Below are positions 29,292 through 60,597 of a stretch of DNA of 60,733 nucleotides, one piece after another. The DNA lies in the IMG/VR virus record IMGVR_UViG_3300021958_000021, positions 124,001 to 184,733 of that record. One strand, 5' to 3'. The position numbers and the translations under genes were made by a program. This stretch comes from an uncultured virus (IMG/VR IMGVR_UViG_3300021958_000021). Taxonomy: Duplodnaviria > Heunggongvirae > Uroviricota > Caudoviricetes. Positions within the stretch are counted from its first letter, which is position 1. Each line of letters begins with the position of its first letter. Under the pieces are notes generated by a model. It saw only the letters and a program-made list of their open reading frames with translations, did no database searches and was not told where the DNA came from.

Positions 29292-29954
29292 TCATAATTT
29301 ATTTTTTGCTTTAAAGGCTTCTAATTGCTTTAGTTTAGCATTTAAAGCATCAAGGTTTTTCTTTTTATCAAAAACTTCCATGCCTCTTATTTTTTTATTT
29401 TGCTCGGCCTGAATTTTTGATTTAAGTTGGGCAATAGCATTATTAATTTTTGTAGAGGCATCATTATTAATTTTTGTAGAGGTTATTTCTGAAGGGGGAT
29501 TTTCATTTGGTGGAGGCGAAGGAGGCGGTTGTTGAGGATTTGGTGGGGCAGGAGGCGGTTGTTGGGGATTTGGTGGGGCAGAAGTCGTTGTTTGTGTTGG
29601 TGTTTGTCCTTTTGGTTTGAATATGTTTGATGACCTTATAGGTTTTTGATTTGGATTATTTTTAATAGGAGGTAAAGGAGATACTGCGTCTTTAATTCTC
29701 CTTGCAACTCCCCTAAATCTATCTGTTAGATTTTCTTTTTCGTTATCTGTGTTACCAGATGGAGGCAAATCAATCATTGAAGGGACTTCAGTAGATTGAT
29801 TAGGAGCCTGTGAATTGCTAGGATTTTGTATGATTTTTGCATTTTGTCGTAATTCTTCTTCTGCATTTTTTACTTTTCTGCTCCTATACCTAAGTTTAAG
29901 AATTTCATCTTCAGTCAATTCTCTTTTAGAAATAACATTCATCCAATCATCCAT
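29292..29954 (-). CDS. Pro/Gln-rich protein with W-tag-like N-terminus (MDDWMNVISK)
   Basis: PPNPQQPPP repeats; inserted among neck genes. Confidence 0.65.
   Translation of the reverse strand: MDDWMNVISKRELTEDEILKLRYRSRKVKNAEEELRQNAKIIQNPSNSQAPNQSTEVPSMIDLPPSGNTDNEKENLTDRFRGVARRIKDAVSPLPPIKNNPNQKPIRSSNIFKPKGQTPTQTTTSAPPNPQQPPPAPPNPQQPPPSPPPNENPPSEITSTKINNDASTKINNAIAQLKSKIQAEQNKKIRGMEVFDKKKNLDALNAKLKQLEAFKAKNKL
29438..29580. repeat. In-frame direct repeats: 21-bp x2 (29438-29458, 29462-29482) and 30-bp x2 (29521-29580)
   Basis: Encode STKINN x2 and APPNPQQPPP x2. Confidence 0.85.
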
Positions 29955-29960
29955 GTTTCA

Positions 29961-31277
29961 TCACTCCACCAAAAATACAATGTCTCCCTTTCCTTTAATA
30001 ATTTCCATAGCCTCATTTCTAAGAATATCATATTTTTCCTTTGTTGTGATATTTGCCCCAGTTTCAGCCACAAGGATAGTTTGGTCGTCATGTCGTAAAA
30101 TCTCTGCCGCCGCTAATTTTGTAGCGGCTTCGTGAATAACCGAAGGGACTCTTCCATCACCAGCAATATAAGAAATAATAATTGAATTTTGTGTATGGTA
30201 AGGATAATCTCGCAAAAAGAAAATTCTAGATTCATCACTAATATTCCAATATGACCCTAATCTCTTTAAATCTTCTTTATCTGTAAATCCTGTTACATTA
30301 CAAACAGTAGGGATAGAAGTCTCAATCGCAGTAAAAGTTCCTGTTCCTGAACCTGTATTTGTTGCATTTTTGGACATTGTAATTGTAGTCGCATCAACAA
30401 TAGCAGAAATAGTTGTTCCCGAAGGAATGTGATTATTGTTGTCCTCAATTTCCATACCTACGACTAATTTAGATGAATCTGCAACAGTTAAAGTAGGACT
30501 TCCATTTACATGAGAAATTGCCTGTTTTAGTCGGACTTTTAGCACACAATCTGAGCCATCTTCGCCGGACAACAGGGATGAGAGAAGAATGTTAGCCCCA
30601 TTTTCTGAGTCCTTTTGAGCAAAGAAAAAGTCAGAAATAGAAAGATTAGAAGAAGTGAGGCTTTTTGCTGCATTTGCATTCGTAAAGGTAGAAGTTTTGG
30701 ATGGAAACTGTTCATTAACAAGAGCAACTATTTCTTCATTTGTGGTCTTGATTCCATAAGCATTGTTAAATTCATCGTTGCCTAAAGACCCGCCAACACC
30801 AGATTCCGAAACCATTTCAAATTCAGTCCCACTATTCGGCAAAGCAAGAACAATAGAATAAATGTCTCTATAATTAGACAACAATTCCAGTTGCGCTTGA
30901 GCAGATGCTAACTCAATATATCTATTTCCCTGCCAAACTCTCAAAGAGACCACTTTTTTTAACTTTAATGTAGTCAGTTGAATAAAGCCAACATATCCAC
31001 CATAATATGTTTGCATTGGGTGATTCATAAATTCAAAATTATAATATTCATTTTTATACAATAGTGGCCTAAAAGAACGCTTTACCTTTTCATCTATCAT
31101 TCCTTCAACCCTTTTTATAATTTCTCCGACTTGGGATTGACTAGGGTATGTGTCTGCGGTAAAAGCAGGAACTTGTAATAAATTAGAAATTGCATCCTTG
31201 TCAGTATAATACCCAGAACCAGTAGTATAATCTACTGCAATTGTGGTATAGTCGCTAGGTGAACTGCTAATCGGCAT
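29961..31277 (-). CDS. Head-tail adaptor-like protein with inserted beta domains
   Basis: N-terminal VGEIIKRVEGMIDE and C-terminal ISYIAG...VPSVIHEAATKLAA, typical of gp6/gp15-like adaptors. Confidence 0.7.
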   Translation of the reverse strand: MPISSSPSDYTTIAVDYTTGSGYYTDKDAISNLLQVPAFTADTYPSQSQVGEIIKRVEGMIDEKVKRSFRPLLYKNEYYNFEFMNHPMQTYYGGYVGFIQLTTLKLKKVVSLRVWQGNRYIELASAQAQLELLSNYRDIYSIVLALPNSGTEFEMVSESGVGGSLGNDEFNNAYGIKTTNEEIVALVNEQFPSKTSTFTNANAAKSLTSSNLSISDFFFAQKDSENGANILLSSLLSGEDGSDCVLKVRLKQAISHVNGSPTLTVADSSKLVVGMEIEDNNNHIPSGTTISAIVDATTITMSKNATNTGSGTGTFTAIETSIPTVCNVTGFTDKEDLKRLGSYWNISDESRIFFLRDYPYHTQNSIIISYIAGDGRVPSVIHEAATKLAAAEILRHDDQTILVAETGANITTKEKYDILRNEAMEIIKGKGDIVFLVE

Positions 31278-33718: not shown

Positions 33719-33727
33719 GTATTTTCC

Positions 33728-34393
33728 TCACATTAACCATTTAGCCCAAGCCGCCCCTTTTTGAATAGCAGAACCCAAATGTAATCCGCTTGAAGGTGGC
33801 TCATAACTCATTTGTCCCGTTTGTGGGTCAATCCAATAAGGACGGCCATAGCCGTCCTGCCCCGATGGAGGAATAGGGTAGCCCGAACCATTGTTCATAG
33901 CACCCTGCATTTGCTGATATTGAGCCGTTGTTCCGGTTGCGCCAGCGATAGCCATACCAGCAGAAGGTTGAGCCATACCGCCACCAAAACCTTGAGATTC
34001 AAGGTATTGTTGTTTAGCCATTTTTCGTTGGGTTATAACCTCGGCATTTAGAGCCTCTCCCAAAATCTTTTGAATGTCTAAATCAATGTTTTCTTGCGTA
34101 ATTCTTTCAAATTCCCTCATAGCATCGGGATGAATTTTTAATCCTCCGGTAGTAGAGTCAGTTGTAAAGGACAGTTTTCCTAACATTTGGGAAACTACTC
34201 TTTCAATGACATCTTCCATCAGTTTTTCAAATGCGACTAAAAACCGTTCACCGTGATATTGAAAAAATTCTTCAACATGGTTATCTTGCAAAGAAAGCAA
34301 GTTATTTACTGTTTTAAATTGAGCGTCATTTTGCGATTGAACCGCATTTAATACTGTGCCGTTACTTGTTCCAAAAAGTCCCATATCATTCAC
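33728..34393 (-). CDS. Hypothetical protein with G/Q/P-rich tail and terminal amphipathic helix
   Basis: Helical N-half and low-complexity C-half ending LGSAIQKGAAWAKWLM. Confidence 0.7.
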   Translation of the reverse strand: MNDMGLFGTSNGTVLNAVQSQNDAQFKTVNNLLSLQDNHVEEFFQYHGERFLVAFEKLMEDVIERVVSQMLGKLSFTTDSTTGGLKIHPDAMREFERITQENIDLDIQKILGEALNAEVITQRKMAKQQYLESQGFGGGMAQPSAGMAIAGATGTTAQYQQMQGAMNNGSGYPIPPSGQDGYGRPYWIDPQTGQMSYEPPSSGLHLGSAIQKGAAWAKWLM

Positions 34394-35677: not shown

Positions 35678-35678
35678 T

Positions 35679-35972
35679 TTATTCACCTATAAATACATCT
35701 AATCCAACAAATTCTCCTTCTATTTTCTTTTCGTAGTTCCAAAAAAGTTCTCCGTTAAATTCATCTTCATCGGCATATCTCATTTTCCAACCTAAATTGT
35801 TCAGTTTTCTATTTAATTCATCCCAATTCACATCTAATGGAAACAGTAAATCAATATCTTTTGGATTATCCTTTTTTCCGACAGAACCAACAATTTTTGG
35901 TTTAAATTCCTTTAAATCATCAAGCAAAGAATTAGCAATAGAAACATAGTTTTTAAGTATGCTAAACCACAC
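35679..35972 (-). CDS. Minimal Pol-beta-superfamily nucleotidyltransferase with W-x-x-ILK N-terminal tag
   Basis: IVGSV...DIDLL and LDVF motifs; begins MWFSILK. Confidence 0.7.
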   Translation of the reverse strand: MWFSILKNYVSIANSLLDDLKEFKPKIVGSVGKKDNPKDIDLLFPLDVNWDELNRKLNNLGWKMRYADEDEFNGELFWNYEKKIEGEFVGLDVFIGE

Positions 35973-35973
35973 A

Positions 35974-37904: not shown

Positions 37905-39248
37905 TCATTGAAGGTTGGTGATTTTACCTTGTCCCTTGAAGAAAGAACAACCAACTTCACCAATAGTTCTGTATAAGGCTCTGTTTCCGAGACTCCCAAC
38001 GCCAAATGGATTTCCGTTTGCAATACCATCCTCAAAATATTGGGTTGGCTTCATAACGGATAACCACAAATGGTCGGTATCAAGGAATAATAGGTCAGAA
38101 AGTGGAGAAGTTACTCCCGCATTAGCCGTTTGCGTCATATCCTTGACGGGAATCAAGGGAATATCGTAATAAGTGGCGACTCGGAAACCGACTTCTTGAC
38201 CCTTTGTTCCACGAACACCATTAACGGTGGGAACAATTTCTTTTCTGTCCATAAATCTCTCTTGACTTTGCAAAAGGTCAGCCAATGCTTGAATTGTGTC
38301 ATATCCCGTAAGAATGACCTTTGGCGAACCACCAGCAAGACGAAGGTTGCGAATCATGTCATTTAAACGAGTTAGCGTAAAAGAACGCACATCGCTTGCA
38401 CCATAAGCCGAACCAAAATCTACTTCTGCATCAAGGAAAGATGCGGCAGTAAAACGCTCAGTCCCATAAATTTGACCTAATGCGTTAGAAGCAGAAGCGG
38501 TATCGGTAGCAATAGCCCCACCGTCAATAGCCAATAATTCTGCTCTAGAAGTAACGACCTTCAATAAAGAAGTGTAATTGTTTCCAATGTTAGGCATAGC
38601 CGCACTTTCACCGTAAAACTCCAAAGGCATAACAAGCATTTTATTCTGAACTTCAGCGTGATGCTTACCCATGTCTTCTCTCATTTGCGCTCTAATATCA
38701 CCGATACCATCGTCAATTTGAGCCATCTCCATAGCCAATTCGCTGAAATCAAACTGATGAGCAACAACTTTTGGACTCATGTTCAATTGAGCATAGGTTG
38801 GAGCAATTGGGCCTAAACCGTCTAAAGCGGTAGAAAGACCTGCATTTTCAGGAACACCACCAATTAAATCGGCTCTTGGATTATCCGACCCTAATTCTGC
38901 TAAAGTGGTATCGCCCGAAGAATCCACAGTAAAGAGGTTTCCAGAGCCACCAGCAGGACGGGACTTCAAAACACGCCAACCGCTTGAAGAATATGGACGC
39001 TTTGAAATCATTGAAAGAGCATTGACTTCACGGTTAAGCATAGACCAAACCTTTTGTCCATAAACAATGTTATAAAGGGCAGAAACATCAGAAATGCCGC
39101 TTCCCGAAAAAGAAGGAGAACCGTCATGTCCTGTATGAATACCGCCAACTGCCCCTGCTTGCTTCAAAAGAGCGTTTCCAGCAGGGAGGTTGTTAATTCC
39201 GTAAGTTTGTGCTTCTAAATCTGCAATAGTGTTAATATATCCTACCAT
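37905..39248 (-). CDS. Major capsid protein (HK97 fold)
   Basis: 447 aa directly after the protease-scaffold gene; PKVVAHQF, YYDIPLIP and LFLDT segments are typical of HK97-type MCPs. Confidence 0.85.
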   Translation of the reverse strand: MVGYINTIADLEAQTYGINNLPAGNALLKQAGAVGGIHTGHDGSPSFSGSGISDVSALYNIVYGQKVWSMLNREVNALSMISKRPYSSSGWRVLKSRPAGGSGNLFTVDSSGDTTLAELGSDNPRADLIGGVPENAGLSTALDGLGPIAPTYAQLNMSPKVVAHQFDFSELAMEMAQIDDGIGDIRAQMREDMGKHHAEVQNKMLVMPLEFYGESAAMPNIGNNYTSLLKVVTSRAELLAIDGGAIATDTASASNALGQIYGTERFTAASFLDAEVDFGSAYGASDVRSFTLTRLNDMIRNLRLAGGSPKVILTGYDTIQALADLLQSQERFMDRKEIVPTVNGVRGTKGQEVGFRVATYYDIPLIPVKDMTQTANAGVTSPLSDLLFLDTDHLWLSVMKPTQYFEDGIANGNPFGVGSLGNRALYRTIGEVGCSFFKGQGKITNLQ

Positions 39249-39259: not shown

Positions 39260-40480
39260 TCAAAGGTTTCCTCCGACCATTTTATGAATATCGCTCCAAT
39301 CCATTGTAGCGATTTCATCAACCGTGGGAACATTAATTGCACTATTTTCCTGTGCTTTGCGAATTTCTGCCTTTTCCGAAGTTAAGGCCTTTCTTAATTC
39401 GCTAAACTCATTCTTAAGAGAAGCAATTTCCGAAGCCGCATCATAGTTTTGCTTTGCAATAACATTTTCTCGGCTGTTCACTTCTTGAGCAAATCTATGC
39501 TCAAAAGACTTCTTGAGGTTATCGTAAGCCAAAGCCTCTAATTGCTCTTGGCGGAAAGCCTCATAAGCCTTCTCAATGTTTCCAACGCTCAAATCAAGCG
39601 TTTGCAATTCATTGTTTTGAAATGCCTTAACAACAGGCATATCGGAAGAAGTGGGGCGACCATTGTTAATAACGATTCTATCAGCAGGTTCACCGATTTG
39701 GTTTCCTGCACCGTCAAGGGTTCGGAGATAGGCTTTGTTTTCGGCCATAGACCTTTCATAGTCCCCTTCTTCCATTTCGTCCCCGTTATCGGCCCTTTCA
39801 GTTTCAGGCATTTCGGGCATTTCGGTGTCCATGTATTCGCCCGATTCAATGTCTTCTTCTTCTTCTTTTCTTAACGAATTGACTTCCTTCAAAAGTTCAT
39901 CCAATTCGCCTAATGCTTTTTCCAGTTTTTCTTGTGTCATAACATCACCTGTTTTTTCTTGTTTTAGTATGTCAAATCTCGCTTCGGGGTTAATTCCTTT
40001 TTCGCAGATGGTAATTTCATGCAACTCTAATTTGCTAATTTCGTTGTATTCTCCCATCCTTTCGTGGCTTTTCTTCACTTTTCTCAATGCTTGTCCACCA
40101 ATGCTAAAACTTCTTAACGAACCTTTGCGAATGCCTCTTCCTACTTCTTTTGCTTTTTCTATGTCGTCCCTTAATTTAATCACAACAAAGAATCCGACAT
40201 CATCTACTTCTGATTTCCATAATCTTCCGTTTTTATCTCGGTATGAATCTACTACTTCTCCCACTTGAACATTTGAATGATTTGTCATTACATTTCTGAA
40301 TCTTGGTTCTTCCATGAATTTTTTAACTGCGTCTTGTAAAGCATCTAATGTGATTAAATCATTTTGTTTATCCACGATTTCAATGCTCGCATATCCTCCA
40401 ATCATAAGGTCGTCGCCGCTTTTTAGAATGTTGAAATCATCATTCCTTTGCGCCACGATGCCCCCGTTCATGTGTTTCAA
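39260..40480 (-). CDS. Prohead protease (HK97 family) fused to a scaffolding domain
   Basis: GYAS...VDKQND, NHSN, RSFSIGG, EITIC..GINPEA; acidic/coiled-coil C-half. Confidence 0.92.
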   Translation of the reverse strand: MKHMNGGIVAQRNDDFNILKSGDDLMIGGYASIEIVDKQNDLITLDALQDAVKKFMEEPRFRNVMTNHSNVQVGEVVDSYRDKNGRLWKSEVDDVGFFVVIKLRDDIEKAKEVGRGIRKGSLRSFSIGGQALRKVKKSHERMGEYNEISKLELHEITICEKGINPEARFDILKQEKTGDVMTQEKLEKALGELDELLKEVNSLRKEEEEDIESGEYMDTEMPEMPETERADNGDEMEEGDYERSMAENKAYLRTLDGAGNQIGEPADRIVINNGRPTSSDMPVVKAFQNNELQTLDLSVGNIEKAYEAFRQEQLEALAYDNLKKSFEHRFAQEVNSRENVIAKQNYDAASEIASLKNEFSELRKALTSEKAEIRKAQENSAINVPTVDEIATMDWSDIHKMVGGNL

Positions 40481-46447: not shown

Positions 46448-46942
46448 CTATTCGTCTTTCAATAATTTAGCGGATTCTATATTAAAATAAAAGTCGCTGT
46501 TGTTAAACACTTGGTTTATTGCCATATCTGTTAATTTATCATACCTATATTTTGAAAATAATACTTCGGGATTTTCGCTGACTTCTTTTTCAAATTTATC
46601 TACTATCAAATCGTAAATTTTGTCTCTAATTTTTTCAGGGCTATTATTTTCAAGATTACTAATAATTTCTTTTTGTGCTTCTACCATTTTTGAATCTCCC
46701 CTTTGTTCGGCAAATTTGATTTTGTCCTTCATATTCCCAAGTATTTTATCATATTCTCTTTCTATCATTTGCAGGACTTGATTGGACATATAAGATTTTA
46801 ATGAACGAATTTTAGTTCCCCTTTGATTTTTTATTGTTTCTTTATTAGGGTCGCTGGTTTTTTTACCGTAGCCATAATTGGGGGTATTTACTGAATCATT
46901 ATTGTTTCTTTTTTTCTTAAGTATGGTAATCCAATCCATCAA
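46448..46942 (-). CDS. Hypothetical protein with W-x-x-ILK tag (MDWITILK)
   Basis: Coupled to the portal stop codon. Confidence 0.65.
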   Translation of the reverse strand: MMDWITILKKKRNNNDSVNTPNYGYGKKTSDPNKETIKNQRGTKIRSLKSYMSNQVLQMIEREYDKILGNMKDKIKFAEQRGDSKMVEAQKEIISNLENNSPEKIRDKIYDLIVDKFEKEVSENPEVLFSKYRYDKLTDMAINQVFNNSDFYFNIESAKLLKDE

Positions 46943-50557: not shown

Positions 50558-51988
50558 TCAAAAATTTAGACCTATGAAGCCATTAGAACGCCCGTATTTG
50601 GGCGTTGAGACAGGCTCAAATAAACCCATATCGTCAAGCAATATGAAGGTTTCACTTAGCGTATGGGTGGCCGCATTCGCTAAGGCGAGGCTCATAACCA
50701 TGTCGTCATGTGCGCCGATTCCCTCAAACTTTCCTCTTTCGGTGATTGCGAACATAGACAACTCTTCAATCAAAGAAGCAGAAACCCTTCTGCTCTCTTC
50801 GTTGCCGTAGGGCAAGTTAATTTTCTCATTCTCAAAATTCATTTGAAGGCTAAGAATAATCTCTTCTTTCTTCTTTCGGGTGGTATTAAAATCATGAACA
50901 TTCAAATCAGAAACATTTCTCAATTCTTGAGTAAATGATTTTGCAAATGTATTTGTTTCAAAGAGGACGGCTTCAGGATGGAAAATTTTTCCAATCAATT
51001 TAACTTTTTGAATATTTTCTCTAAATTCCACATTTTTTGCTCTATCAATATATACGATGGATTTGTTATCGTTTTCATCAACTTCTAAAACAGTAATAAC
51101 ATTGTAGTCACCATCTGTTGAAATTGCAGGGTCTACACCAACATAATATTTATACCCCTCTCTTCTCTGAGGCCTAAGAATATAGTTTTTATTTTTTGCT
51201 TTTTCTAAATATTCTGGATTAAAGAGAGAAGTCCCTGTTGAAATCGGCACACACATATATTCTCTTGTGAACATCAAAGAGCCGACTTCAGCCTTACGAG
51301 CCATTAATGCATCGTAATCCCAACGGTCAGGCCAAAGAGGTTCATTTAGAGAATTAAGGCAAGGATAGGTTCTAACAGTATATGCCTCGTTTTCGGATAA
51401 CTGTTGGTAAATATCAGTATATGAAAAGGGAGTCCCAATAACTCTTAATGAAGCAGTATGGTGAAGAGTCGGAATCATGTCACCATAAAACCAATCCGTG
51501 ACTTTTTGAATACCAGCAATACTAAACTCTTTCAAAGGGTCGTCAATAATAATTTCTTGAGGATGCAAACCACGAATCTGTGAACCAACAGAACGCTCAA
51601 GGATTTGATTTCCATTAGTTAATGTGATGTTTCCAATAGCCCAACCTCTTGCCGGTTTGAATTTTTTAAGCATTGGATGGGTGAACATTTTATCAATATC
51701 TCTCATGTGAACAAGAGTCTGCTTTTGGTTAGATGAAATGTAAAGCATTTGATATGGGGGTTCGGAGAAAATTAATTTCCATACAACCCACGAATGCATA
51801 AATACAGATTTTCCGTGGTCTCTTGAACAAATAATAACGGTTCTTTGTGTATCGTTCATTAATTCGTGCCATTCTTGAATATAGGAAGGAAAGTCAAAAC
51901 CTAAAACATTTTGAAAAAAATATGGGAAGGAGTTTTTAGATAACTCCATATCCATTTGATGTTCAAAATTAAAGGTATCTAATTCCAT
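50558..51988 (-). CDS. terL: Terminase large subunit
   Basis: Walker A SRDHGKS, Walker B IIIDD, GTP motif, RNase H VGVDPA and HDDMVMSLA; likely ATG at 51988. Confidence 0.95.
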   Translation of the reverse strand: MELDTFNFEHQMDMELSKNSFPYFFQNVLGFDFPSYIQEWHELMNDTQRTVIICSRDHGKSVFMHSWVVWKLIFSEPPYQMLYISSNQKQTLVHMRDIDKMFTHPMLKKFKPARGWAIGNITLTNGNQILERSVGSQIRGLHPQEIIIDDPLKEFSIAGIQKVTDWFYGDMIPTLHHTASLRVIGTPFSYTDIYQQLSENEAYTVRTYPCLNSLNEPLWPDRWDYDALMARKAEVGSLMFTREYMCVPISTGTSLFNPEYLEKAKNKNYILRPQRREGYKYYVGVDPAISTDGDYNVITVLEVDENDNKSIVYIDRAKNVEFRENIQKVKLIGKIFHPEAVLFETNTFAKSFTQELRNVSDLNVHDFNTTRKKKEEIILSLQMNFENEKINLPYGNEESRRVSASLIEELSMFAITERGKFEGIGAHDDMVMSLALANAATHTLSETFILLDDMGLFEPVSTPKYGRSNGFIGLNF

Positions 51989-52497
51989 TTTAGAACCCCC
52001 ATCCATTCAGGATTAAAATACTGCATCCATTTTTGCACTTGGTCTGGATAATTTGTCCCTTCCAATTCATCTCGTAATTCTTGGGGCAGTTTATCCATTT
52101 CCATATCTTTGAATCCTTTTCTTCTAAATGAGCCTGAGATTTGAGGATTAGCGATATTAACAAGAAGAGTCTTATTTCCCTTTTCCGAAATAATTTTATC
52201 AAGGAGAATTGAACCTAATCCTCTTCCTCTAAACTCTTCTCTTACATGGACTCCTGCATCTAAAAGAAATCTTTTGTATTTGGCGAAACCAATAACTGCA
52301 ACAGGCTTATTGTTGTAATGTGCTACAAACATAGTAGCGGGTGCTTTAGCCCACAAAGAATCAGGAGAGAGGTTTTTTCCATACCTCATTTTTCTTTTTT
52401 GATAATCAAAGTAACCGTCCTTTTCAAAAGTTTCCACCGCCTGTTCTTCCGACATTTCTCGGAAAGTAATTTCATTAGCAGAAATCTTCTCCGGCAC
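51979..52497 (-). CDS. GNAT family acetyltransferase
   Basis: VHVREEFRGRGLGSILL acetyl-CoA motif, FRRKGF; ends EWMGVLKWN. Confidence 0.85.
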   Translation of the reverse strand: MPEKISANEITFREMSEEQAVETFEKDGYFDYQKRKMRYGKNLSPDSLWAKAPATMFVAHYNNKPVAVIGFAKYKRFLLDAGVHVREEFRGRGLGSILLDKIISEKGNKTLLVNIANPQISGSFRRKGFKDMEMDKLPQELRDELEGTNYPDQVQKWMQYFNPEWMGVLKWN

Positions 52498-52501: not shown

Positions 52502-52855
52502 TCACGACCCTTTACGCCAGTTCTTATTCTTTTTCTCTTTGGTCTTTCTTGGACTCCATTTGACCTTATTAGCCCAATAAGCCGCCGACATTTTACCACG
52601 CTTGATGTTCTTTTCGTGGCGATTATAGAATGCCTGTCTTTGTCCGGCAGTTTGATTTGTCTTAACTCCCTTTTGTCCAAAAGGCATATATTTGTATTCT
52701 CCACCTTCGGAAGCCATAACATGATGAGATGCGGTTTTATGGTTTTTTAATCTCTTCGGTTTATTTAATCCTTTAAGTCCCTTTTTCTTAGCCCTTTCTA
52801 CTGCCCTTGACCTTGCGCTCTTAGGCTTCTTTTTGAGAATATCTTCCCATGTCAT
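52502..52855 (-). CDS. Small basic protein with MTWEDILK tag (common marine-phage family)
   Basis: FGQKG...RQAFYNRH...SAAYWA motif. Confidence 0.7.
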   Translation of the reverse strand: MTWEDILKKKPKSARSRAVERAKKKGLKGLNKPKRLKNHKTASHHVMASEGGEYKYMPFGQKGVKTNQTAGQRQAFYNRHEKNIKRGKMSAAYWANKVKWSPRKTKEKKNKNWRKGS

Positions 52856-52859
52856 AATA

Positions 52860-53237
52860 TTACCTCATAATCAAATCGCCATGCTTATGCTTATAAATTA
52901 TCTTTTTACGCATCATGGCATCTAACATTCTATTGAGTTCCTTTGGCGGCGCAATTGATTTTAAATTCTTCATACCCAATGCACCTCCTTCTTTCTTGAA
53001 CATAGCGATAATTTCTTTTTCAATTTGAGAGTCGCTTTTAACAGCCTTTTTCTCTTCGTCTGACTCGTTTAAGATTTTAAAATCTTCTCCTGTAATCTTA
53101 CCATCATTATTAGCATCAATTCTCTTTTGATTTCCAACGAGTTTCTTTTCAAAATCCTGCTTTTGACAAGAAGAACAACCAGCGCAACCGCTTTTCTCTC
53201 CACTACAATTTGCCTTTAAAACCTCTTTCCAACTCAT
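52860..53237 (-). CDS. MSWKEVLK-tagged protein with Cys cluster, EF-hand-like loop and wHTH-like end
   Basis: CAGCSSC; DANNDGKITGED. Confidence 0.7.
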   Translation of the reverse strand: MSWKEVLKANCSGEKSGCAGCSSCQKQDFEKKLVGNQKRIDANNDGKITGEDFKILNESDEEKKAVKSDSQIEKEIIAMFKKEGGALGMKNLKSIAPPKELNRMLDAMMRKKIIYKHKHGDLIMR

Positions 53238-53497
53238 CTTCCCTCAATCCTTCTATATACTTTTTTAGCGGTCTTTCCTCTAGGAACATTTTGTTTTCCT
53301 TTTCTAGTCCCTTCTCTTTTCTTTTTGCTCTCGTATCTTCTTTGTTCTGGCGTAAGAGAATCTTTTACGGCTTGAGGTGCATATCTCCCGCCTTCGGTAG
53401 TAAGGTTTGTCCATTTTTCATTATCCCATTCTACCATATCTTTTTGCTTATCGGTTAAACCTTTAATGGTGTTCCACCAATCATTTTTTATTGACAA
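53234..53497 (-). CDS. Small basic protein resembling the C-half of DUF5872-like phage proteins
   Basis: Likely TTG start after GGTGGTG; KNDWWNTIK, then QKDMVEWDNEKW...GRYAP...KGKQNV. Confidence 0.6.
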   Translation of the reverse strand: MSIKNDWWNTIKGLTDKQKDMVEWDNEKWTNLTTEGGRYAPQAVKDSLTPEQRRYESKKKREGTRKGKQNVPRGKTAKKVYRRIEGR

Positions 53498-53720
53498 AGC
53501 CACCACCTGCCTTTTGATATAGCCTATTAAGTTCTTGTGATTTACGAGCAGACCATTGATATTTGCCTGTTCCATGAGTATTTTTTGCCCACAATCTTCT
53601 ATGAATTTTTGCTCTTAATTTAGGTTTTGTATATACTCCTTTAGGAACTTTATAGGTATATTCTCTTTTTTTCCTTTGGCTTCTTGAAGGTTTCTTTTTT
53701 AGAATATCTTCCCATGACAT
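53481..53720 (-). CDS. Small basic MSWEDILK-tagged protein resembling the N-half of DUF5872-like proteins
   Basis: YTKPKLR...QWSARKSQ...YQKAGGGF; ATG at 53720. Confidence 0.7.
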   Translation of the reverse strand: MSWEDILKKKPSRSQRKKREYTYKVPKGVYTKPKLRAKIHRRLWAKNTHGTGKYQWSARKSQELNRLYQKAGGGFVNKK

Positions 53721-53722: not shown

Positions 53723-54487
53723 TTATTGCTCCCAATCAATAACATCTGGATGGTCGGTTGGGTTTAACTGAATTGACCTAAGACCATCATCATAATTACT
53801 GTGCTTGCCTGCTTTATATTCATTTGGTTTTATGAATAGAACAAAATCCCTTCCTTCAACTTCAAGTTTATTTCCGCAAACCCGACATTTTTTAGGGACA
53901 ACTGGAGAAGGTATTGAATTGTTGCCGCATTCCATACAAGATATAACTCCGTATTTCTCTCTTTCCTTTTCTGCAAACTCTCTAATTTTCATGTTATTTT
54001 TATATTCAGTAGTTTTTTCATATTGTTCTCTTCTCTGTCTATTCTTTTCAGCCTTATCCTTAGCCGCTTTTTCCTTTCTTTCTCTCTCTTCCCTTTTCTT
54101 TTCTCGGTCTATTTGGATTTGAGGCTTAGTATATGTAGAATAGGCGTAGTTTCTTTTAGGCTCTTCTTTTCCTTTTTTCTTCTTTAGTAGTGTGAACCAT
54201 TCACTTTTAGCAAATCCTTCTCTAATTTCTCCCCGCTTATCTGAAACCATAAATGGTCTTCCGCTTGGTTTAGATAATCGGGTTTTTCCCATTTGTTTAA
54301 ATCTATCTTCTGCTTTAGGCATTTGGCTTGTGGCGACTTTCTTTTCACCTCTTGCCTTTCTTTTCCTATTCATTTCTTTGGCATCGGCTTGGGCTTTTTC
54401 TCTTGAAGCAAATCCGCCTCTTCTCTTTCCATCAAGGTAATAGTAATATCCATCGCTACCGCCATAAATCTTAACCATTTTCTTCAT
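53723..54487 (-). CDS. Basic protein with internal EWFTLLK motif and zinc ribbon
   Basis: ATG 54487 after GGTGA; CMEC...CRVC. Confidence 0.65.
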   Translation of the reverse strand: MKKMVKIYGGSDGYYYYLDGKRRGGFASREKAQADAKEMNRKRKARGEKKVATSQMPKAEDRFKQMGKTRLSKPSGRPFMVSDKRGEIREGFAKSEWFTLLKKKKGKEEPKRNYAYSTYTKPQIQIDREKKREERERKEKAAKDKAEKNRQRREQYEKTTEYKNNMKIREFAEKEREKYGVISCMECGNNSIPSPVVPKKCRVCGNKLEVEGRDFVLFIKPNEYKAGKHSNYDDGLRSIQLNPTDHPDVIDWEQ

Positions 54488-54491
54488 AGTA

Positions 54492-57041
54492 TCACCTAAA
54501 GTTTGCTTTAATATAATATACTTCTTCCTTAGAAATACCAAATGCTTTTGAAATGCTATCAAAAGAATCCACTACTTCTACAATGCTATTTAATTCACTA
54601 GCACTAATATCAGTATTGAATTTATTATACATTTTACTAATCATATTTTGAATTGAATCATAATCGTCTAGATTGTGCTTTCCATAATACACAGGCTCTC
54701 TCTTTAAAATCCGAATATTGTCGTGAGCCTCTAGTAGTTTTTTCTGTATGGGGCTTCTCTTTAAATTCTTAATTTGGCTAGCAATTGTATTGATTGCCGT
54801 AAGAGCCGTGGATTTTTTCTCTCTTTCTCCCGATTCGTCTTGTTTATAGCCGCCAAAATAAAGTTCCGCAGAACGCTTGTTAAAGAATCTAATAAAGGTT
54901 TTTAATACTGACATATCAGCAAAATCTTCGTCATTTAATTTAGCATAGGCTTCATCAACATCTATGCCTTCTAATGTCATTTTTTCTTCATCGCCTGTTG
55001 TAGCCTTTAATGCGCCTAACATAGAAGCGGCTTCGCTAACAATTTTGTTATAATATGTATCGGTTTCCTCAACATCATAAATATCTGACATTACTTCAAT
55101 AAACTCAACAAACTGTTTTTTAGCATCATTTAGATTTGTAAAGCCCGTGTTAATTTTTTTCATAATTTTTGCTAGACTAACTAAGTCTTTAACTGCAACA
55201 GATTTAGTTCCTCGCCTAACCATTTTAGAATATAATCTATTTACTCCTTCAAACTTTACACTTTTTCCGTAGGTCATTAAAATATTAATAGCCCCAATAT
55301 CTGCAAAATCAAGGTCTATTCCGAAAGTGTATTCCGACTCACTAGGCCCATAAAAATAGGTTTCAATGTCTTCAATAATATCCTTAATGAAATCAACATC
55401 TTCTTTTTCTTTAAATTGCAAAGCGGGTTTATTTTCGGGCGTGACTTGCCTTTTGTATTGTGTAACTGCTCTTTGAGCCGCTTGCTCAGGTATAGGTATG
55501 GCTAGCCTTGCAGTATCGGAAAATCCTGTTTGGTCTGTTCCGAAAAGCCGCAAATCAATATTTTGAGGCAATACAGTATTATTTTTTTCTAATGCTCTTT
55601 GTAATAAAGCAAAAAAGGTTTGAAGTTTTGTCCCCAAATCCTTTGCATTTGAAGCAAACTCAGAATAATGTTCCAATAATTCTGGACTATCGGCCATAAA
55701 AATTGGAAGGAATCCAGAGCCTTCTTCCTCATATTCATCTAAATTTATCATAAAGTCTGTAAAGTTTCTAATGTCTTCTTCGGTAAATGGGATTCCTTGT
55801 TTGGCGAATAACTGCATAACATCATTCATTTTCATATCGGCTAAACTTTTAAAGAAATCCACCTCAATGTCCGTCGTAAAGGTTCTAAGTGACCTTTTAG
55901 AAGCAATAATTGCTAAAGGCCCAAGAGTCATTTCTTCTGGGTCTAATTCAATTTCTTCAGAAATATTAGATAAATCCAGAGTTGCAGAACGCCGTTGTCC
56001 TTGTTCTCCTTCGGGTAGGCTGGATTGATTGTCTATTCTATTTTGAATTTCTTCATCCATTTGGTCGCCAGTTGCAGTTCTGGCATACTCAGAAGAATAG
56101 ACATCAAACTCTTCTTCTGCCTTTGATTCTGAATAATCTGCCATAGGCCCAGTAACTGCTTCAACAATATTATATACTTCCAAATAGTTATAAATAAAAT
56201 CATTTACTCTTTTATCCATATTAGCCATTTTAATATTTTTTGAAGGATAATCAACAACATACCTTAAAAAATCATATTTTTCCTTTTTAACAAAATCAAG
56301 ATATTTTTTAGCGTCAGGGTCTTTTTCATCTAACATGTCTTCAAGTTTCTCTAGTTTGTTAACGAAAGAAGAAATACCTTTACTAATATTTTCCCAATAA
56401 TCGTGCGCTCTAGAAATCATTTCTGGTTTAATAATTGAAGATGCATCAAAAAAGATTTCTCGGTCTTGAGTAGTGAATTTTATGGCTTTACTTTTTTTGC
56501 CTTTAGGAATGTTAGTTTTAAGTAAAGCATGAAGTTGATTCAAATGTGTGATTTTGATTTTACTTACTTTAAATCCGGGCGTATCTCTTTCAAAAATCTT
56601 AATAAAGGTTTTGATATGCTTAGCCGCAGTATTGACATTAAAGCCCTTGTTAATTCTTACCTTACTAATATTAAAGCCTCTACCTATGTCGGCCAGTTTT
56701 AAAGGCCGGTTTTCATAAGAAAAAATGTTGACATTTTTTAGCATTAGAACTGCGGCCATTTTATCTGCTTTAGCCCCACTAAAATATTCTTTTAATTCTT
56801 TAACAATTTCAAGCGTTACGGTAGTTAAGTCTCCTAATTCAGAAAGACCATCAATTTTTCTAATTGCTCTAAGTGTTGCCTTTTGATTTAAAAAATCTAA
56901 ATCTAAGTCTTTACTAAACTCCGAAGGTTTTAGATTTTGCAACTCTTGAGGAATAATATCTGCTAATCCGCCAGTAAATTTAAAACCCGTGTTTTTATCG
57001 TAATCAAACAACTTAGAGAGATTAAGGAATTGCTGGCTCAT
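54492..57041 (-). CDS. Large hypothetical protein with HTH-like C-terminus
   Basis: 849 aa; ends FDSISKAFGISKEEVYYIKANFR. Confidence 0.7.
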   Translation of the reverse strand: MSQQFLNLSKLFDYDKNTGFKFTGGLADIIPQELQNLKPSEFSKDLDLDFLNQKATLRAIRKIDGLSELGDLTTVTLEIVKELKEYFSGAKADKMAAVLMLKNVNIFSYENRPLKLADIGRGFNISKVRINKGFNVNTAAKHIKTFIKIFERDTPGFKVSKIKITHLNQLHALLKTNIPKGKKSKAIKFTTQDREIFFDASSIIKPEMISRAHDYWENISKGISSFVNKLEKLEDMLDEKDPDAKKYLDFVKKEKYDFLRYVVDYPSKNIKMANMDKRVNDFIYNYLEVYNIVEAVTGPMADYSESKAEEEFDVYSSEYARTATGDQMDEEIQNRIDNQSSLPEGEQGQRRSATLDLSNISEEIELDPEEMTLGPLAIIASKRSLRTFTTDIEVDFFKSLADMKMNDVMQLFAKQGIPFTEEDIRNFTDFMINLDEYEEEGSGFLPIFMADSPELLEHYSEFASNAKDLGTKLQTFFALLQRALEKNNTVLPQNIDLRLFGTDQTGFSDTARLAIPIPEQAAQRAVTQYKRQVTPENKPALQFKEKEDVDFIKDIIEDIETYFYGPSESEYTFGIDLDFADIGAINILMTYGKSVKFEGVNRLYSKMVRRGTKSVAVKDLVSLAKIMKKINTGFTNLNDAKKQFVEFIEVMSDIYDVEETDTYYNKIVSEAASMLGALKATTGDEEKMTLEGIDVDEAYAKLNDEDFADMSVLKTFIRFFNKRSAELYFGGYKQDESGEREKKSTALTAINTIASQIKNLKRSPIQKKLLEAHDNIRILKREPVYYGKHNLDDYDSIQNMISKMYNKFNTDISASELNSIVEVVDSFDSISKAFGISKEEVYYIKANFR

Positions 57042-58945
57042 TCTTCCACCTCAATAAAAGATACACTATTTCCCTTAATATCCAACGAAAAGAATTGACT
57101 GGGCAACGATTCCTTTAAATCTTCACTAACTGTTTTGTCTGCTTTAATCTTGTAGAGAGCCGGATATTTATAAGGATTGCTAATAATGTCCAAAAACTTC
57201 TTTTCAATTCCTTCTTTAAACAAATCTTGTAATAGCGTAATTTCTTCATCAAGAGCATTTAGGAAAGGCTCTATCGCTTCGCTATTGACCCCTTGCTCTT
57301 TATCCTGTTGGTTGGGGGTGTAGATTTTTTCAGCCAAATCGTCAGACCTGCCCGTAATATACTTTTCAAGGAGTCGCAAGAAGGATAAAAGATTATATTC
57401 ATTTTTATCCGAATCTAATTTGGGACTTACCTTATCTCCATACATTAACTCAACAATAGTTTCATTTTCTTCTTTAGCCAAATCAATAAGAGCACCTAAA
57501 ACGCCCTTAACATCTTCTTGAATCCCGACAGATTCATTAATTGTAAATATTTGCCAATTATATTTTTCTGGGTCAAATTCTGAATTTAGTTCCATAAGAG
57601 CGTCATCATCAGCGAATTGCTTTTCCATAATAATATATTCTTTTAATTGTTCAGTTAGTTTTACTTTATTGCCGTCAATTTGCAATTTTTTTCTTTTGTT
57701 TGGGTCAGTTGTGATTTCTAATACATCTGTAACTTCTAAAGGAATATATTGAATAAAAGCAGTTTCTTGAGTATCTTCTGCTTTATCTGATACCTTGACA
57801 CTTCTATCGCCTTCTGAAATTGTAACTTGATACAAACTTTCTCCTCTAGCACCGCTTAAAGTGGCTTTTTCGGCACTTGCATAGGCTTTTAGGCCAGTAT
57901 TAGCAGTAACTAAAACCCCATATACAAAATCATTGGGAATATATTGGTTTCCTGTGGGAATAACTATACCAAATTCTTTATCTGCTATAGAGTCTCCTTT
58001 GATTCTAAACAATAATTCCTTGGTAATTTCCTTATTATTGTCACCATAATTAGTTCTGAGTAATTTAAAATACCCTTCTACTACCGAATTATCCACTTCT
58101 GCGACTTTATATTGCCTTTTAATGGATGGTTCTTTGAACTTAAAATCTTTAATTTTCTTATATTTTGGGTTAAATTCAGTAGTATTTTTAGATATATAAG
58201 TTTCAATTTTAGCATTTTCATCGGATAATCTGAAAGATTTGTTCTTTTTTTGCAGTTTTTCTTGTATTTTATCAATTTTTTCTTGAAATTGTGAGGTAGG
58301 TTCTTTGTTTTCATCTAATTTAAACACTAATTTAAACACCGTTGCAAATTTAGTTGGCCCCTTTTCACTTTCAAAGCCAGAAATTGACTCTAATGGAGAA
58401 TCTATAACAGTTACCTTTAACTTAGCATAATTATAGTTGAGGGTTTCGTCAAATTTGTCATAATTTTCTGGTTTTTTGGCATATTTTTCAAAAAGTTTCT
58501 TCATTTTTGTCAATTGAGCGGCAGTCGCACCCCTTACTAATTTTTTAAGAGAGGCCTGTCTGTGGTTATTATATAAATAGGTCACAATTTCTTTATCATC
58601 CACTAAATATTCATCTAAAGTTTCAAAATTATGCCTTTTTCTGGACATGCGACTAGCAATTTCTCGCTTAACTCTTTGAAAATTTTCAAAAATTGTATCA
58701 ATTTGGTCTTTTACCATGTTTTGAGTAGATTTTTCCATTGAATTTAAAAAGGATTCGGGACTGACATCATCAAATTTTTTAACCAATTGATTAAATTTTT
58801 TCTTTCCTGTGCCTCTTTTTCCAGAGTCTTCTTCTTTATTAATTAACTCAATTAAAATATTCGTAGTCGCATCCGAACCAAGCATTGAAATTAAAGCAAT
58901 CTCCGAAGTAGGGAGAGTTTGCTTTAAAATTGCTCGCCAACTCAT
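57038..58945 (-). CDS. Large MSWRAILK-tagged hypothetical protein
   Basis: 635 aa; preceded by the 22-bp junction repeat. Confidence 0.75.
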   Translation of the reverse strand: MSWRAILKQTLPTSEIALISMLGSDATTNILIELINKEEDSGKRGTGKKKFNQLVKKFDDVSPESFLNSMEKSTQNMVKDQIDTIFENFQRVKREIASRMSRKRHNFETLDEYLVDDKEIVTYLYNNHRQASLKKLVRGATAAQLTKMKKLFEKYAKKPENYDKFDETLNYNYAKLKVTVIDSPLESISGFESEKGPTKFATVFKLVFKLDENKEPTSQFQEKIDKIQEKLQKKNKSFRLSDENAKIETYISKNTTEFNPKYKKIKDFKFKEPSIKRQYKVAEVDNSVVEGYFKLLRTNYGDNNKEITKELLFRIKGDSIADKEFGIVIPTGNQYIPNDFVYGVLVTANTGLKAYASAEKATLSGARGESLYQVTISEGDRSVKVSDKAEDTQETAFIQYIPLEVTDVLEITTDPNKRKKLQIDGNKVKLTEQLKEYIIMEKQFADDDALMELNSEFDPEKYNWQIFTINESVGIQEDVKGVLGALIDLAKEENETIVELMYGDKVSPKLDSDKNEYNLLSFLRLLEKYITGRSDDLAEKIYTPNQQDKEQGVNSEAIEPFLNALDEEITLLQDLFKEGIEKKFLDIISNPYKYPALYKIKADKTVSEDLKESLPSQFFSLDIKGNSVSFIEVEE

Positions 58946-58957
58946 TGTAATCTCTCC

Positions 58958-59200
58958 TTAAAAACCCATAGAATCTAAGTATTCTTTTAATTGCTGCGCT
59001 CTATTTCTATCAACTTTAGGATGAGTAACTAATTCATCCATAAGCATAGATATTTTCTTTTTACTTTCATCTTCATTACCATATTTACCAGAGTTATATG
59101 CTTGATTAAACTTGGTTCTATTGCCCATTAATTTATCCATTTCAATAGTAATGTCGTTAAGCGACTTAAGATTAAACTTTAAAATATCTTTCCAACTCAT
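58958..59200 (-). CDS. Cassette protein, MSWKDILK tag
   Basis: 80 aa between junction repeats. Confidence 0.8.
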   Translation of the reverse strand: MSWKDILKFNLKSLNDITIEMDKLMGNRTKFNQAYNSGKYGNEDESKKKISMLMDELVTHPKVDRNRAQQLKEYLDSMGF

Positions 59201-59499
59201 TATAATCTCTCCTTCATCGCATACAAATCGTATAGATGGCGTTCAAAACCATTTTTCTCACGAAGTAATTTTTGTCCTTCTTCACTATTGTTATCAACGC
59301 TACTCAATCGTGTCTTTATGTCTTTAATATCGCCTTGATAAAATTTTATCATTTTTCTAAGATATGCGTTTAGTCCCATGCTCCTAGCAGTTTCTAACAT
59401 CAAATCCACATATTCTTTTCCTTGTATTGGTTCTATAAAACGCTCAAGTGAGGTTTTTAATTCAGCCAAATCATTTTTCAGTATATCTTCCCAACTCAT
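59200..59499 (-). CDS. Cassette protein, MSWEDILK tag
   Basis: 99 aa between junction repeats. Confidence 0.8.
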   Translation of the reverse strand: MSWEDILKNDLAELKTSLERFIEPIQGKEYVDLMLETARSMGLNAYLRKMIKFYQGDIKDIKTRLSSVDNNSEEGQKLLREKNGFERHLYDLYAMKERL

Positions 59500-59981
59500 G
59501 TTAATCTCTCCTGCATTTTTTTAGCGTGTTGTATTCTTTCTTCATTTGAGTAAAACTGAGCAGTAGTTTCCATCAATTGACTGAATTGTTCGGGTAAAGC
59601 ATAATTGACCCCATTACTCTCAAAGTCATCATAACCGATAAACTCTAGTTCTCCAATCAATTCATCTATTGCTTCCTTAACTTTTTTATCGGAAACCAAA
59701 GTATAGTCTAACTTACCCATACCCGCCATTGTGTATTCAGGGTCATCTTCCAAATCAATGTTTTCTTTAGTTTCTTTTGCTTGCTTTATTGTAGGTTTTC
59801 CTATATCTTTCATAGGTCTTTTTGCATTGACTCCGGAACCATAGACAGAATAAACTACGGCTTGATTAAAATAAGGAGTCCAATAGTTCGTATCTTCTTC
59901 TGATTGGCTTCCTTGATATAAAAAGGGAGTTTCTGTCCCGCCAATAGAATATGGAGATTTCAAGACAGTTTTCCAACTCAT
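59496..59981 (-). CDS. Cassette protein, MSWKTVLK tag
   Basis: 161 aa between junction repeats. Confidence 0.8.
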   Translation of the reverse strand: MSWKTVLKSPYSIGGTETPFLYQGSQSEEDTNYWTPYFNQAVVYSVYGSGVNAKRPMKDIGKPTIKQAKETKENIDLEDDPEYTMAGMGKLDYTLVSDKKVKEAIDELIGELEFIGYDDFESNGVNYALPEQFSQLMETTAQFYSNEERIQHAKKMQERLT

Positions 59982-59983
59982 TG

Positions 59984-60343
59984 TTATCTCTCCTCTAATT
60001 TTTTCTTATCTTCGTAGCCGCCAACCATAACAGGGTAAAACTGTATTTGGCCTTGAATACCCCGAATGAAATCCCTAAATCTCGTAATTTCATCGGGATA
60101 TTTTTCTTTATATTCTTGATACATTTTTCTTGGATTTTCTTCAAATCTTTCCGCTAATCCCAATAACTTTTGATAAATATAACTATCTTCTAATGGGAAA
60201 TTTTCTTCTTTTGCAAAACTTTTTGCTCTTTCTATTTGCATTCTAAAATAACTATTTGTTTCGCTAACATATCTTTTTTCATATTTAGCGTCTTGCTCGT
60301 CGGGACTCAATTTTTTTCTTTTTAAGATGATTTCCCAACTCAT
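59984..60343 (-). CDS. Cassette protein, MSWEIILK tag
   Basis: 119 aa between junction repeats. Confidence 0.8.
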   Translation of the reverse strand: MSWEIILKRKKLSPDEQDAKYEKRYVSETNSYFRMQIERAKSFAKEENFPLEDSYIYQKLLGLAERFEENPRKMYQEYKEKYPDEITRFRDFIRGIQGQIQFYPVMVGGYEDKKKLEER

Positions 60344-60360
60344 TGTTATCTCTCCTGCAT

Positions 60361-60597
60361 TTAATTATTTCCATACTTTAAATTAAGATGAACACTTTCT
60401 ACATATTTAGCGGCTTTATGTATGTCTAGCATTGGTGTCATAATTTGGTCTTTAACTTCACTAGGAACATTCTCATCTCTCAATACTTCCCTAAAGTCTT
60501 CATGTGCTTTATTTAATATCTTTAGAGCAGTTTCTAGGTTTTCTTCATCAGTTCCGAATTTTTCATTAAATTTTAATATTTCATCTTTCCAACTCAT
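60361..60597 (-). CDS. Cassette protein, MSWKDEILK tag
   Basis: Start placed at ATG 60597 inside the repeat rather than at 60633; 78 aa. Confidence 0.8.
   Translation of the reverse strand: MSWKDEILKFNEKFGTDEENLETALKILNKAHEDFREVLRDENVPSEVKDQIMTPMLDIHKAAKYVESVHLNLKYGNN

Follow-up and report, generated by a model that had tools for sequence, protein, structure and literature searches.

Encapsulins load diverse cargo into an HK97-fold shell by means of short terminal peptides, and the scaffold of 80alpha has a C-terminal capsid-targeting segment that is copied by CpmB of SaPI1. A short C-terminal segment of the HK97 protease gp4 reportedly mediates incorporation of the protease into the procapsid, in work from 2013 attributed to Duda et al. 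For gp245 of SPN3US, a short C-terminal segment has been argued to bring the prohead protease into the procapsid (PMC7411985). In T4, a 10-residue leader sends internal proteins to the prohead core and is removed by gp21 (PMC9026906); the leader ends in a prohead-protease site, and a like site occurs in the capsid protein (PMC9026906; PMC7411985). The T-even internal proteins Ip1-3 have nothing in common except the leader, and their genes, which are accessory and non-essential, lie in variable hotspots (PMC9026906; PMC12373910). T4 is described as having three internal proteins, with at least 10 Ip types across the T-even phages (PMC12373910). P1 is a phage that injects anti-restriction proteins, and a signal within the first 30 residues of DarB suffices to send a reporter into the capsid; the Dar N-termini are reported to be without a consensus (PMC9024508). 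Here we describe an eight-residue peptide, hereafter the tag, that heads otherwise unrelated proteins in a stretch of 60,733 nucleotides from an uncultured tailed virus (IMG/VR record IMGVR_UViG_3300021958_000021) and in the relatives of this virus, and that resembles the tail of the scaffold encoded in the same stretch. The whole stretch, at its full length, is referred to as the window. We see nearly, if not quite, an even chance that the tag is a capsid-targeting leader. The principle of such a leader is already known from T4 and P1; new features are that the virus is archaeal, that the system is so large, that the tag looks like the scaffold tail and is independent of position, and that it has lineage-specific variants. 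Magroviruses are abundant, uncultured viruses that infect one of the commonest marine archaea, and the function of most of their genes is not known. The gene content of the window agrees with that of the magroviruses of Marine Group II archaea (PMC5434244).

Relatives of the virus were gathered from IMG/VR through the terminase, which yielded 80 loci at 81–96% identity. In 2032 called proteins (493,739 amino acids) from these loci and the whole record, the first 13 residues contain the core motif W-x-x-[IV]-[LIV]-K 502 times; a further 115 copies are internal, many of them reflecting miscalled starts, and 15 lie among the last 20 residues. Composition-preserving shuffles predict only 12.8 copies anywhere in the same proteins. 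Trp stands at residue 3 in 443 of the 2032 proteins. Enrichment at N-termini across relatives, which a preliminary description of the window had proposed as a check, is borne out by these counts; the tag is real and far beyond chance. Its consensus is M-(S/N/T)-W-(K/E/Q/F)-(D/N/E)-I-L-K. When each family is represented by one sequence, Ile is found in 81%, Leu in 64% (Ile at the same position in 25%) and the final Lys in 97% (Arg in 2%). Over the counts made, the last position is Lys in 97–98% and Arg in 1–2%; the Trp does not vary, and conservation extends to the W/I/L face of the helix.

A search anchored at gene starts gave 699 matches in the 80 loci and the record, a figure to which alternative starts nested in one gene and a small number of false matches contribute. 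The tag heads 646 distinct proteins, which after removal of the tag fall into 207 BLAST families (E ≤ 1e-5, coverage ≥ 50%), and 127 of these families are confined to a single source. A common N-terminal domain or paralogy is not supported, because similarity among the 207 families ends at the tag and no position past its Lys is conserved. The observation that the peptide stands on otherwise dissimilar proteins, first made within the window, thus extends to hundreds of unrelated families of ORFans (genes without recognisable relatives). Tagged proteins have a median length of 117 amino acids (aa), the longest having 811 aa, and a genome has 13–16 genes with the tag. Of 150 family representatives, 143 are without a Pfam match at E ≤ 0.001 and seven have one; only two reach E ≤ 1e-4, and the single match above the curated cut-off is a PAP2-type phosphatase. 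Tagged small proteins are not more basic than untagged ones, their isoelectric points showing no difference (median 9.15 vs 9.12). The two genomes that are joined in the record (see below) share little DNA in their tagged-gene regions, and tagged genes are accessory genes in hypervariable loci. In this they are like the T-even Ip genes, and the tag is like the T4 capsid-targeting sequence (CTS) in being a short N-terminal leader on otherwise unrelated proteins, here with eight residues and 207 families. A shared label on about 15% of the genes of a genome sorts those ORFans into one functional class.

The tagged PAP2-superfamily phosphatase (Pfam E 1e-13) has about 190 aa and was found at L033:8875-9447 and in 14 relatives. 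It carries the signature K-x6-R-P / P-S-G-H / S-R-x5-H-x3-D and is without hydrophobic segments or transmembrane character, so that it appears, from its sequence, to be a soluble form.

Conserved gene starts could also reflect an element that acts at the level of DNA or RNA, such as a translation-initiation region, a repressor operator or a recombination cassette, with the peptide as a by-product. The codons speak mainly against this. At the Leu position all six Leu codons are in use, and the codons found there include TTA (22%), CTA (17%), CTT (14%), TTG (12%) and CTC (8%), with C, T and A as first base in 29%, 35% and 26%, respectively. Ile is encoded by ATT in 40%, ATA in 31% and ATC in 7%, and Lys by AAA in 66% and AAG in 30%, against a background of 68/32. 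The use of all six Leu codons and the background usage for Lys indicate selection on the peptide rather than on the DNA, which is the opposite of the pattern, synonymous sites as conserved as non-synonymous ones, that had been named in advance as pointing to a nucleotide element. In addition, the peptide is retained in C-terminal and internal copies, where neither a start codon nor a ribosome-binding site accompanies it, and the analogous tag of a GC-rich sister lineage, described below, uses different codons. Other features are those expected of a nucleotide element: codon 2 is mostly A-N-T (AGT 28%, AAT 15% and ACT 6%, vs 4% for TCT), codon 4 is N-A-A, and six adjacent genes of the window (58945-60597) share GGAGAGAT(T/A)A(C/T)A upstream of ATGAGTTGG. 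The cluster of tagged genes at the right end has GGAGAGATTACA as a common upstream stretch. Conserved gene starts could drive modular shuffling, and mobile regulatory cassettes have been reported from T4-type phages (PMC2839356). The upstream Shine-Dalgarno-plus-ATTA spacer, however, precedes untagged genes as well. To us the codon-2 bias and the shared upstream stretch probably indicate that the gene starts have a common origin or have recombined with one another, and that a certain start context is generally preferred; we consider it very improbable that the element is a nucleotide-level one with the peptide as a mere by-product.

The tag is not restricted to N-termini. The GNAT acetyltransferase encoded just upstream of the terminase ends ...PEWMGVLKWN; its relatives keep a C-terminal W-x-x-[IV]-[LIV]-K with other residues, and in several of them a downstream domain has been joined to the GNAT, the motif then marking the place of fusion. 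One protein begins with tandem tags (MWFDILKWEEILK; G000:C1 96241-96262, - strand), and another, at G000:C1 97310-97340 (-), ends ...SEWFNILKRDD one codon before the MWFDIVK start of the next gene. The tag is a portable short peptide that can be used at more than one position in a protein, and its copies at C-termini and junctions distinguish it from the T4 leader. In an AlphaFold2 model of the tagged 79-aa protein of the window, residues 3-7 form a helix, a basic linker of low confidence comes next, and the core is modelled with confidence from about residue 30 onwards; the tag is accordingly modelled as a small amphipathic helix on a flexible tether. Predictions of a complex between the major capsid protein (MCP) and the same protein scored 0.00 in two runs, made without control runs, and weigh neither for nor against an interaction.

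Eleven genes of the window begin with the tag in the form M-(S/T/D)-W-x-x-(I/V)-L-K, including variants (Table 1), and all strict copies listed in the preliminary description were recovered at the same starts on the - strand. Its looser copies fared worse. A tag profile was built from one tag per family, drawing on the 176 families that have Trp as their third residue, and was run against all 73 called proteins of the window; real tags score 17–29 bits, compared with 1.3 bits for NDWWNTIK (53497) and -2.7 bits for MDDWMNVISK (29954), and MWKAIIAK (46171) is missing from the 32 best-scoring sites. The whole record has 29 distinct tagged gene starts, 13 in its first genome and 16 in its second, a count obtained from 35 raw matches after removal of three nested alternative starts, two internal MCP sites and one spurious + strand site. 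None of the tagged proteins of the window has a Pfam family above the curated cut-off, and at E ≤ 0.1 they have sub-threshold matches only. For the largest of them (635 aa), no Pfam family was found at E ≤ 0.01, and the only matches at E ≤ 0.1 are LPD11 and SesA, both below the cut-off. The tagged 97-aa protein at 35679-35972 contains G-S-V-G-K-K-D-N-P-K-D-I-D-L-L, with a sub-threshold match to DUF6932 (E = 0.05) as its only database match; the G-S...D-I-D stretch resembles the G-S...D-x-D signature of minimal nucleotidyltransferases.

Table 1. Copies of the tag and of its scaffold counterpart, and untagged virion genes, in the window (window positions; position 1 is the first letter of the stretch)
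Feature	Position	Strand	Gene and remarks
MSWKDEILK, variant with one inserted residue	60571..60597	-	N-terminus of 78-aa ORFan, gene 60361-60597
MSWEIILK	60320..60343	-	N-terminus of 119-aa ORFan, gene 59984-60343; profile 25.7 bits
MSWKTVLK	59958..59981	-	N-terminus of 161-aa ORFan, gene 59496-59981
MSWEDILK	59476..59499	-	N-terminus of 99-aa ORFan, gene 59200-59499; profile 29.2 bits
MSWKDILK	59177..59200	-	N-terminus of 80-aa ORFan, gene 58958-59200
MSWRAILK	58922..58945	-	N-terminus of 635-aa ORFan, gene 57038-58945
Internal copy WFTLLK, then KKKK	54182..54199	-	279-aa open reading frame 53723-54562
MSWEDILK, then poly-basic linker	53697..53720	-	79-aa basic protein, gene 53481-53720, phrog_17747
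MSWKEVLK	53214..53237	-	125-aa Cys-containing protein, gene 52860-53237; weak EF-hand matches below curated cut-off
MTWEDILK	52832..52855	-	117-aa protein, gene 52502-52855, phrog_7595
C-terminal copy WMGVLK, then W-N-stop	51988..52005	-	GNAT acetyltransferase, gene 51979-52497, just upstream of terminase
Large terminase subunit	50558-52006	-	Untagged; first of the morphogenesis genes
Portal protein	46939-48582	-	Untagged
MDWITILK (MMDWITILK from 46942)	46916..46939	-	163/164-aa protein directly downstream of portal, gene 46448-46942; profile 16.9 bits
Protein with ATP-dependent DNA ligase domain (Pfam E 7e-30)	40518-43022	-	834 aa, between portal region and protease-scaffold; untagged
Prohead protease (Peptidase_S78) fused to scaffold domain	39260-40480	-	406 aa
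Scaffold C-terminal motif MDWSDIHK	39281..39304	-	Residues 393-400/406 of protease-scaffold
Major capsid protein (MCP), HK97-type	37905-39248	-	Untagged
MWFSILK, GTG start	35952..35972	-	N-terminus of 97-aa protein inside head-tail module, gene 35679-35972

There is a clear distinction between the two strands. Across the record the tag is found on none of 142 open reading frames (ORFs) of the + strand and on 23 of 130 of the - strand, in agreement with the initial remark that tags lie in the late module and are absent from the replication block. The DNA pattern ATGNNNTGGNNNNNNRTHNTNAAR gives the same picture, with 18 matches on the - strand of the record, none on the + strand and none for a reversed-pattern control. 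Five complete genomes of the same clade have 8–16 matches each, of which 61 are on the structural strand and one on the other, and five more divergent complete or near-complete genomes have 6–13 each, divided 46 to one. Within the window the large terminase subunit, the portal protein, the MCP, the tail tube and a tape-measure-like protein bear no tag. Most tagged genes cluster upstream of the terminase, across the genome end and up to the region of divergent transcription; single tagged genes are placed directly after the portal gene (46939) and among the head-tail genes (35972).

These distributions also bear on the possibility that the tag docks on some other common partner, such as a host chaperone, a protease, a ribosome-associated factor or a non-structural viral protein, for timed degradation, localisation or activation. 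N-terminal, C-terminal and junction copies are what one would expect of a portable short linear motif, and the replication proteins of halovirus HVTV-1, with a common C-terminal x-L-D-F tail that could serve a clamp-type hub, show that archaeal viruses do use shared tails. Docking on such a partner is nevertheless unlikely in our estimate, if far from negligible, as the tag is missing from the genes of the replication strand. Moreover, the commonest DNA form of the tag, the one AT-rich spelling that was scanned, has a single match in 596 Gb of prokaryote genomes (approximately the chance expectation) vs at least 130 in IMG/VR, and the best internal match to the tag lies in the tail of the scaffold, a protein of procapsid assembly.

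This last match, MDWSDIHK of the protease-scaffold, scores 10.5 bits and is the best site outside N-termini in the 73 proteins of the window, the runner-up scoring 1.7 bits; the initial impression that the tag resembles the C-terminus of the scaffold is thereby confirmed. An independent full-protein search of the whole library found a related motif at the end of 17 of the 19 homologs examined (31–60% identity over the matched stretches), the two homologs without it being P0013 and P0044. The tails include MSWDEIHGL, MSWEEVHQL, MSWDEVHSL, LSWEEVNEL, MDWNDINAL, MSWEELNS, KAWEEVRKL and TPWIEVHKV. In an alignment of 16 homologs with 25–55% identity, the tail consensus is M-S-W-x-E-x-H-x-L, and W395 is among the few positions outside the protease domain that are at least 90% conserved. 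The scaffold motif (M/L)-S-W-x-(D/E)-(I/V)-H is anciently conserved and still present at 25% identity. In a model of the protease-scaffold it lies in a helix (residues 395-405) behind a low-confidence linker, a layout like that predicted for the tag. Other AT-rich lineages (30–44% GC) have scaffold tails such as EMSWGDIHNL and EISWSDIHSI with tags like MSWQDILK in the same loci. By their MCP (about 24% identity), the closest cultured relatives of the virus are haloarchaeal tailed viruses; among these, HVTV-1 has no N-terminal Trp tag and a different protease-scaffold tail. In HVTV-1 (NC_020158.1, L161/L162), the C-terminus is x-L-D-F or V-L-S-W in several proteins of the replication module, namely those of an ORF of the clamp loader region, of an adjacent ORF, of a methyltransferase and of the DNA polymerase. 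These ends could represent a shared clamp-binding tail.

A second type of tag occurs in a GC-rich sister lineage (54% GC), whose protease-scaffold is about 36% identical to that of the window by tblastn. The tag pattern of the window is absent from four near-complete genomes of this lineage. In the two genomes examined, the corresponding tag is F-D-x-A-W-x-V-L-K (e.g. FDAAWAVLK), with shared starts that include MRAFDAAWAVLKA, MSGAFDAAWAVLKM, MFEKAWRFLKA and MTPMQEAWLLLK among others, and one protein bears the tag C-terminally (...SSFRDAWSVLKS). Eleven tagged proteins of this lineage were compared and have no BLAST matches among themselves; at E ≤ 0.1, tagged proteins of the lineage have only sub-threshold Pfam matches. 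The 117-aa MTWEDILK protein of the window has a homolog in one of these genomes (G004; 50% identity over 70 aa, E 7e-16), which forms the C-terminal domain of a 477-aa ORF and is preceded, at a matching distance, by ...ADLAWVVLKAQKRDP..., containing ADLAWVVLKA, a tag of the sister type. An orthologous domain placed behind the tag of either lineage indicates that the type of tag follows the virus lineage and not the cargo. The scaffold of the GC-rich lineage still ends MSWEEVHQL, which shares only W-x-x-hydrophobic with its tag FDAAWAVLK. Of the proposal that the peptide mimics the scaffold, the resemblance itself is supported in AT-rich lineages, which pair the tag with a similar tail; strict mimicry as a general principle is not. 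A tag type that differs between lineages when the scaffold tail does not is also a point in favour of another docking partner.

A possible second pair of homologs, the 79-aa basic protein of the window and a 53-aa tagged protein of the sister lineage, was dropped at an hhalign probability of 0.2. On the replication strand of the GC-rich lineage there are tandem small genes that all start M-I-D-T-D-K-Y-E-G-H, seven in G003 (L247; 90542-92735, -) and two in G004 (L237; 14917-15536, +), which may represent a paralogous family or a second shared leader.

If the tag is a capsid-targeting leader, the following sequence of events can be proposed, in which docking, enclosure, cleavage and ejection are steps that we infer. 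While the procapsid is being assembled, the tag would occupy the docking place of the scaffold's conserved C-terminal helix; the tagged proteins would be enclosed in the head and, with the DNA, delivered into the next host cell. The S78 prohead protease may cut off the tag after its near-invariant Lys (P1), and the N-arm of the MCP could contain the matching protease site. In that arm L27-L28-K29 (39162-39170) is invariant between variable flanks, and the MCP of the sister lineage has G-S-E-L-L-K at the position of this L-L-K. Both tag types end in hydrophobic-hydrophobic-Lys, in common with L27-L28-K29 and with the E-L-L-K of the sister lineage. This would be like T4, where targeting leader and capsid protein share a type of protease site; here hydrophobic-L-K is found in both tag and MCP N-arm.

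The same residues could mean that the motif is mainly a signal for processing or modification, with either the prohead protease or a protease of the host cutting after Lys, or with Lys being modified, for instance acetylated by the GNAT, and no packaging involved. Lys is almost fixed in the tag though Arg is one mutation away, both tag types have the same ending, the L-L-K of the MCP N-arm is invariant between variable flanks in both lineages, and the gene of the GNAT, itself with a C-terminal copy, adjoins that of the terminase. Against modification, the GNAT was not found by tblastn (E ≤ 1e-5) in the sister lineage, which has tags. The invariant Trp and the conserved helical W/I/L face point to docking, rather than to a mere cut site, and we consider a function in processing or modification without packaging improbable. 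In T4 cutting and targeting go together (PMC9026906), so that a processing signal overlaps with a capsid-targeting leader.

A stronger proposal is that magroviruses run the largest known capsid cargo-loading system, in which a lineage-specific label of eight residues would be copied from the scaffold tail and would bring over 12 effectors per virion, a hypervariable set, into the head, to be injected into Poseidoniales. Hundreds of ORFan families would supply these effectors, among them the GNAT, the soluble PAP2-like phosphatase and the nucleotidyltransferase-like protein. We put this forward tentatively, as a possibility with clearly less than an even chance. Several observations weigh against a capsid-targeting function of either scope. 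A set of 13–16 tagged genes per genome would make a large cargo list. The main tagged clusters stand at the start of the leftward transcription unit, by the divergent region and far upstream of the terminase, a place that is also typical of early accessory or host-takeover genes, and the placement of many tagged genes there is a point in favour of a partner outside the capsid. The A-N-T bias of codon 2 and the GGAGAGATTACA stretch upstream of the right-end genes indicate that some nucleotide-level or recombinational constraint coexists with the selection on the peptide. In the sister lineage the scaffold tail is kept and the tag is different, which means that strict scaffold mimicry does not hold throughout; the tag may instead dock on a component that has diverged between the lineages, for example the scaffold body, or on a non-capsid one. 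The peptide M-(D/E)-W-S-D-I-H-K is found in 79 of 79 close homologs of the protease-scaffold, an invariance that is partly due to ascertainment because this peptide was among the six search patterns. Finally, two F-x-I-L-K stretches of the protease-scaffold (residues 16-20 and 180-184) were set aside as candidate autocleavage sites, being conserved across the aligned homologs and lying in low-confidence regions of the model, and cannot be used as evidence for cleavage sites.

As a capsid-targeting leader, the magrovirus tag would differ from the described systems in several respects. Unlike T4, the virus has an archaeal host and an HK97-type S78 protease fused to the scaffold, and each genome encodes 13–16 tagged proteins compared with three internal proteins in T4. 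Binding to the scaffold core has been reported for the T4 CTS; the magrovirus tag, by contrast, resembles the scaffold's own tail. The tag has no obvious relation to the T4 leader in sequence, and the likeness that we propose is one of mechanism only. Unlike the Dar proteins of P1, hundreds of magrovirus proteins carry a strict consensus. Unlike in 80alpha and CpmB, where a single size-determination factor has the copied segment, this segment would here be N-terminal and carried by many cargo proteins. The peptides of encapsulins, most often C-terminal, follow another consensus, and their shells are without scaffold, protease, portal or DNA; here too we claim likeness only, and no membership. 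In the main text of the magrovirus papers searched, no mention of a shared N-terminal tag, a scaffold motif or internal proteins was found, and no literature was found that links archaeal viruses with capsid targeting or Poseidoniales with a conserved N-terminal tag, in accord with the preliminary description, whose author was unaware of any such report from archaeal viruses.

If the tag is a capsid address, an injected-protein system would be described here for the first time from an archaeal virus, and the tag would provide a natural minimal handle of eight residues for loading proteins into HK97-fold shells. It would also mark, from sequence alone, which of the 'dark matter' genes are injected host-takeover or anti-defence genes. 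Even with a non-capsid partner, a pervasive portable tag with lineage variants on orthologous cargo would represent an unusual case of short-linear-motif evolution in a virus.

The source record has 184,733 bases, of which the window comprises bases 124001-184733 and represents the second of two joined genomes. Comparison of the record with itself shows two related magrovirus-type genomes of about 91–94 kb each, arranged head to tail, with patchy alignment at 74–96% identity and a constant offset of about 90.6–91.5 kb. Rather than a single genome of 185 kb, the record is probably a heteroconcatemer or the result of joining two strains that occur together during assembly. The + strand of the window encodes the replication set, consisting of an RFC-like clamp loader, a split family-B DNA polymerase, a PD-(D/E)XK nuclease, primase-like proteins and an ERCC4 nuclease; the virion genes of the - strand are those for the terminase, the portal, the ligase-domain protein, the S78 protease-scaffold, the HK97-type MCP and the tail (Table 1). 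Haloviruses have large proteins at the position that corresponds to the ligase-domain protein. The family-B DNA polymerase is encoded in two ORFs, at 5919-7541 and 7966-8919 (+), with the small ORFs 7544-7771 and 7716-7955 between them. Giant ORFs are present in the tail region: that of the window (16379-22531, -) encodes 2050 aa without a Pfam or PHROG match, and those of the GC-rich lineage encode 5576 aa (G003, 44166-60896) and 5660 aa (G004, 52186-69168).

Many proteins encoded on the + strand of the window have acidic C-termini (G-E-E, E-E-E or similar), for example those at 439-681, 684-899, 11973-13460 and 13462-13680, and the same is seen in G003 and G004. The codons of these tails overlie the GGAGG/GGTGA ribosome-binding site of the next gene, which makes the acidic tails, unlike the Trp tag, look like a by-product of tight translational coupling.

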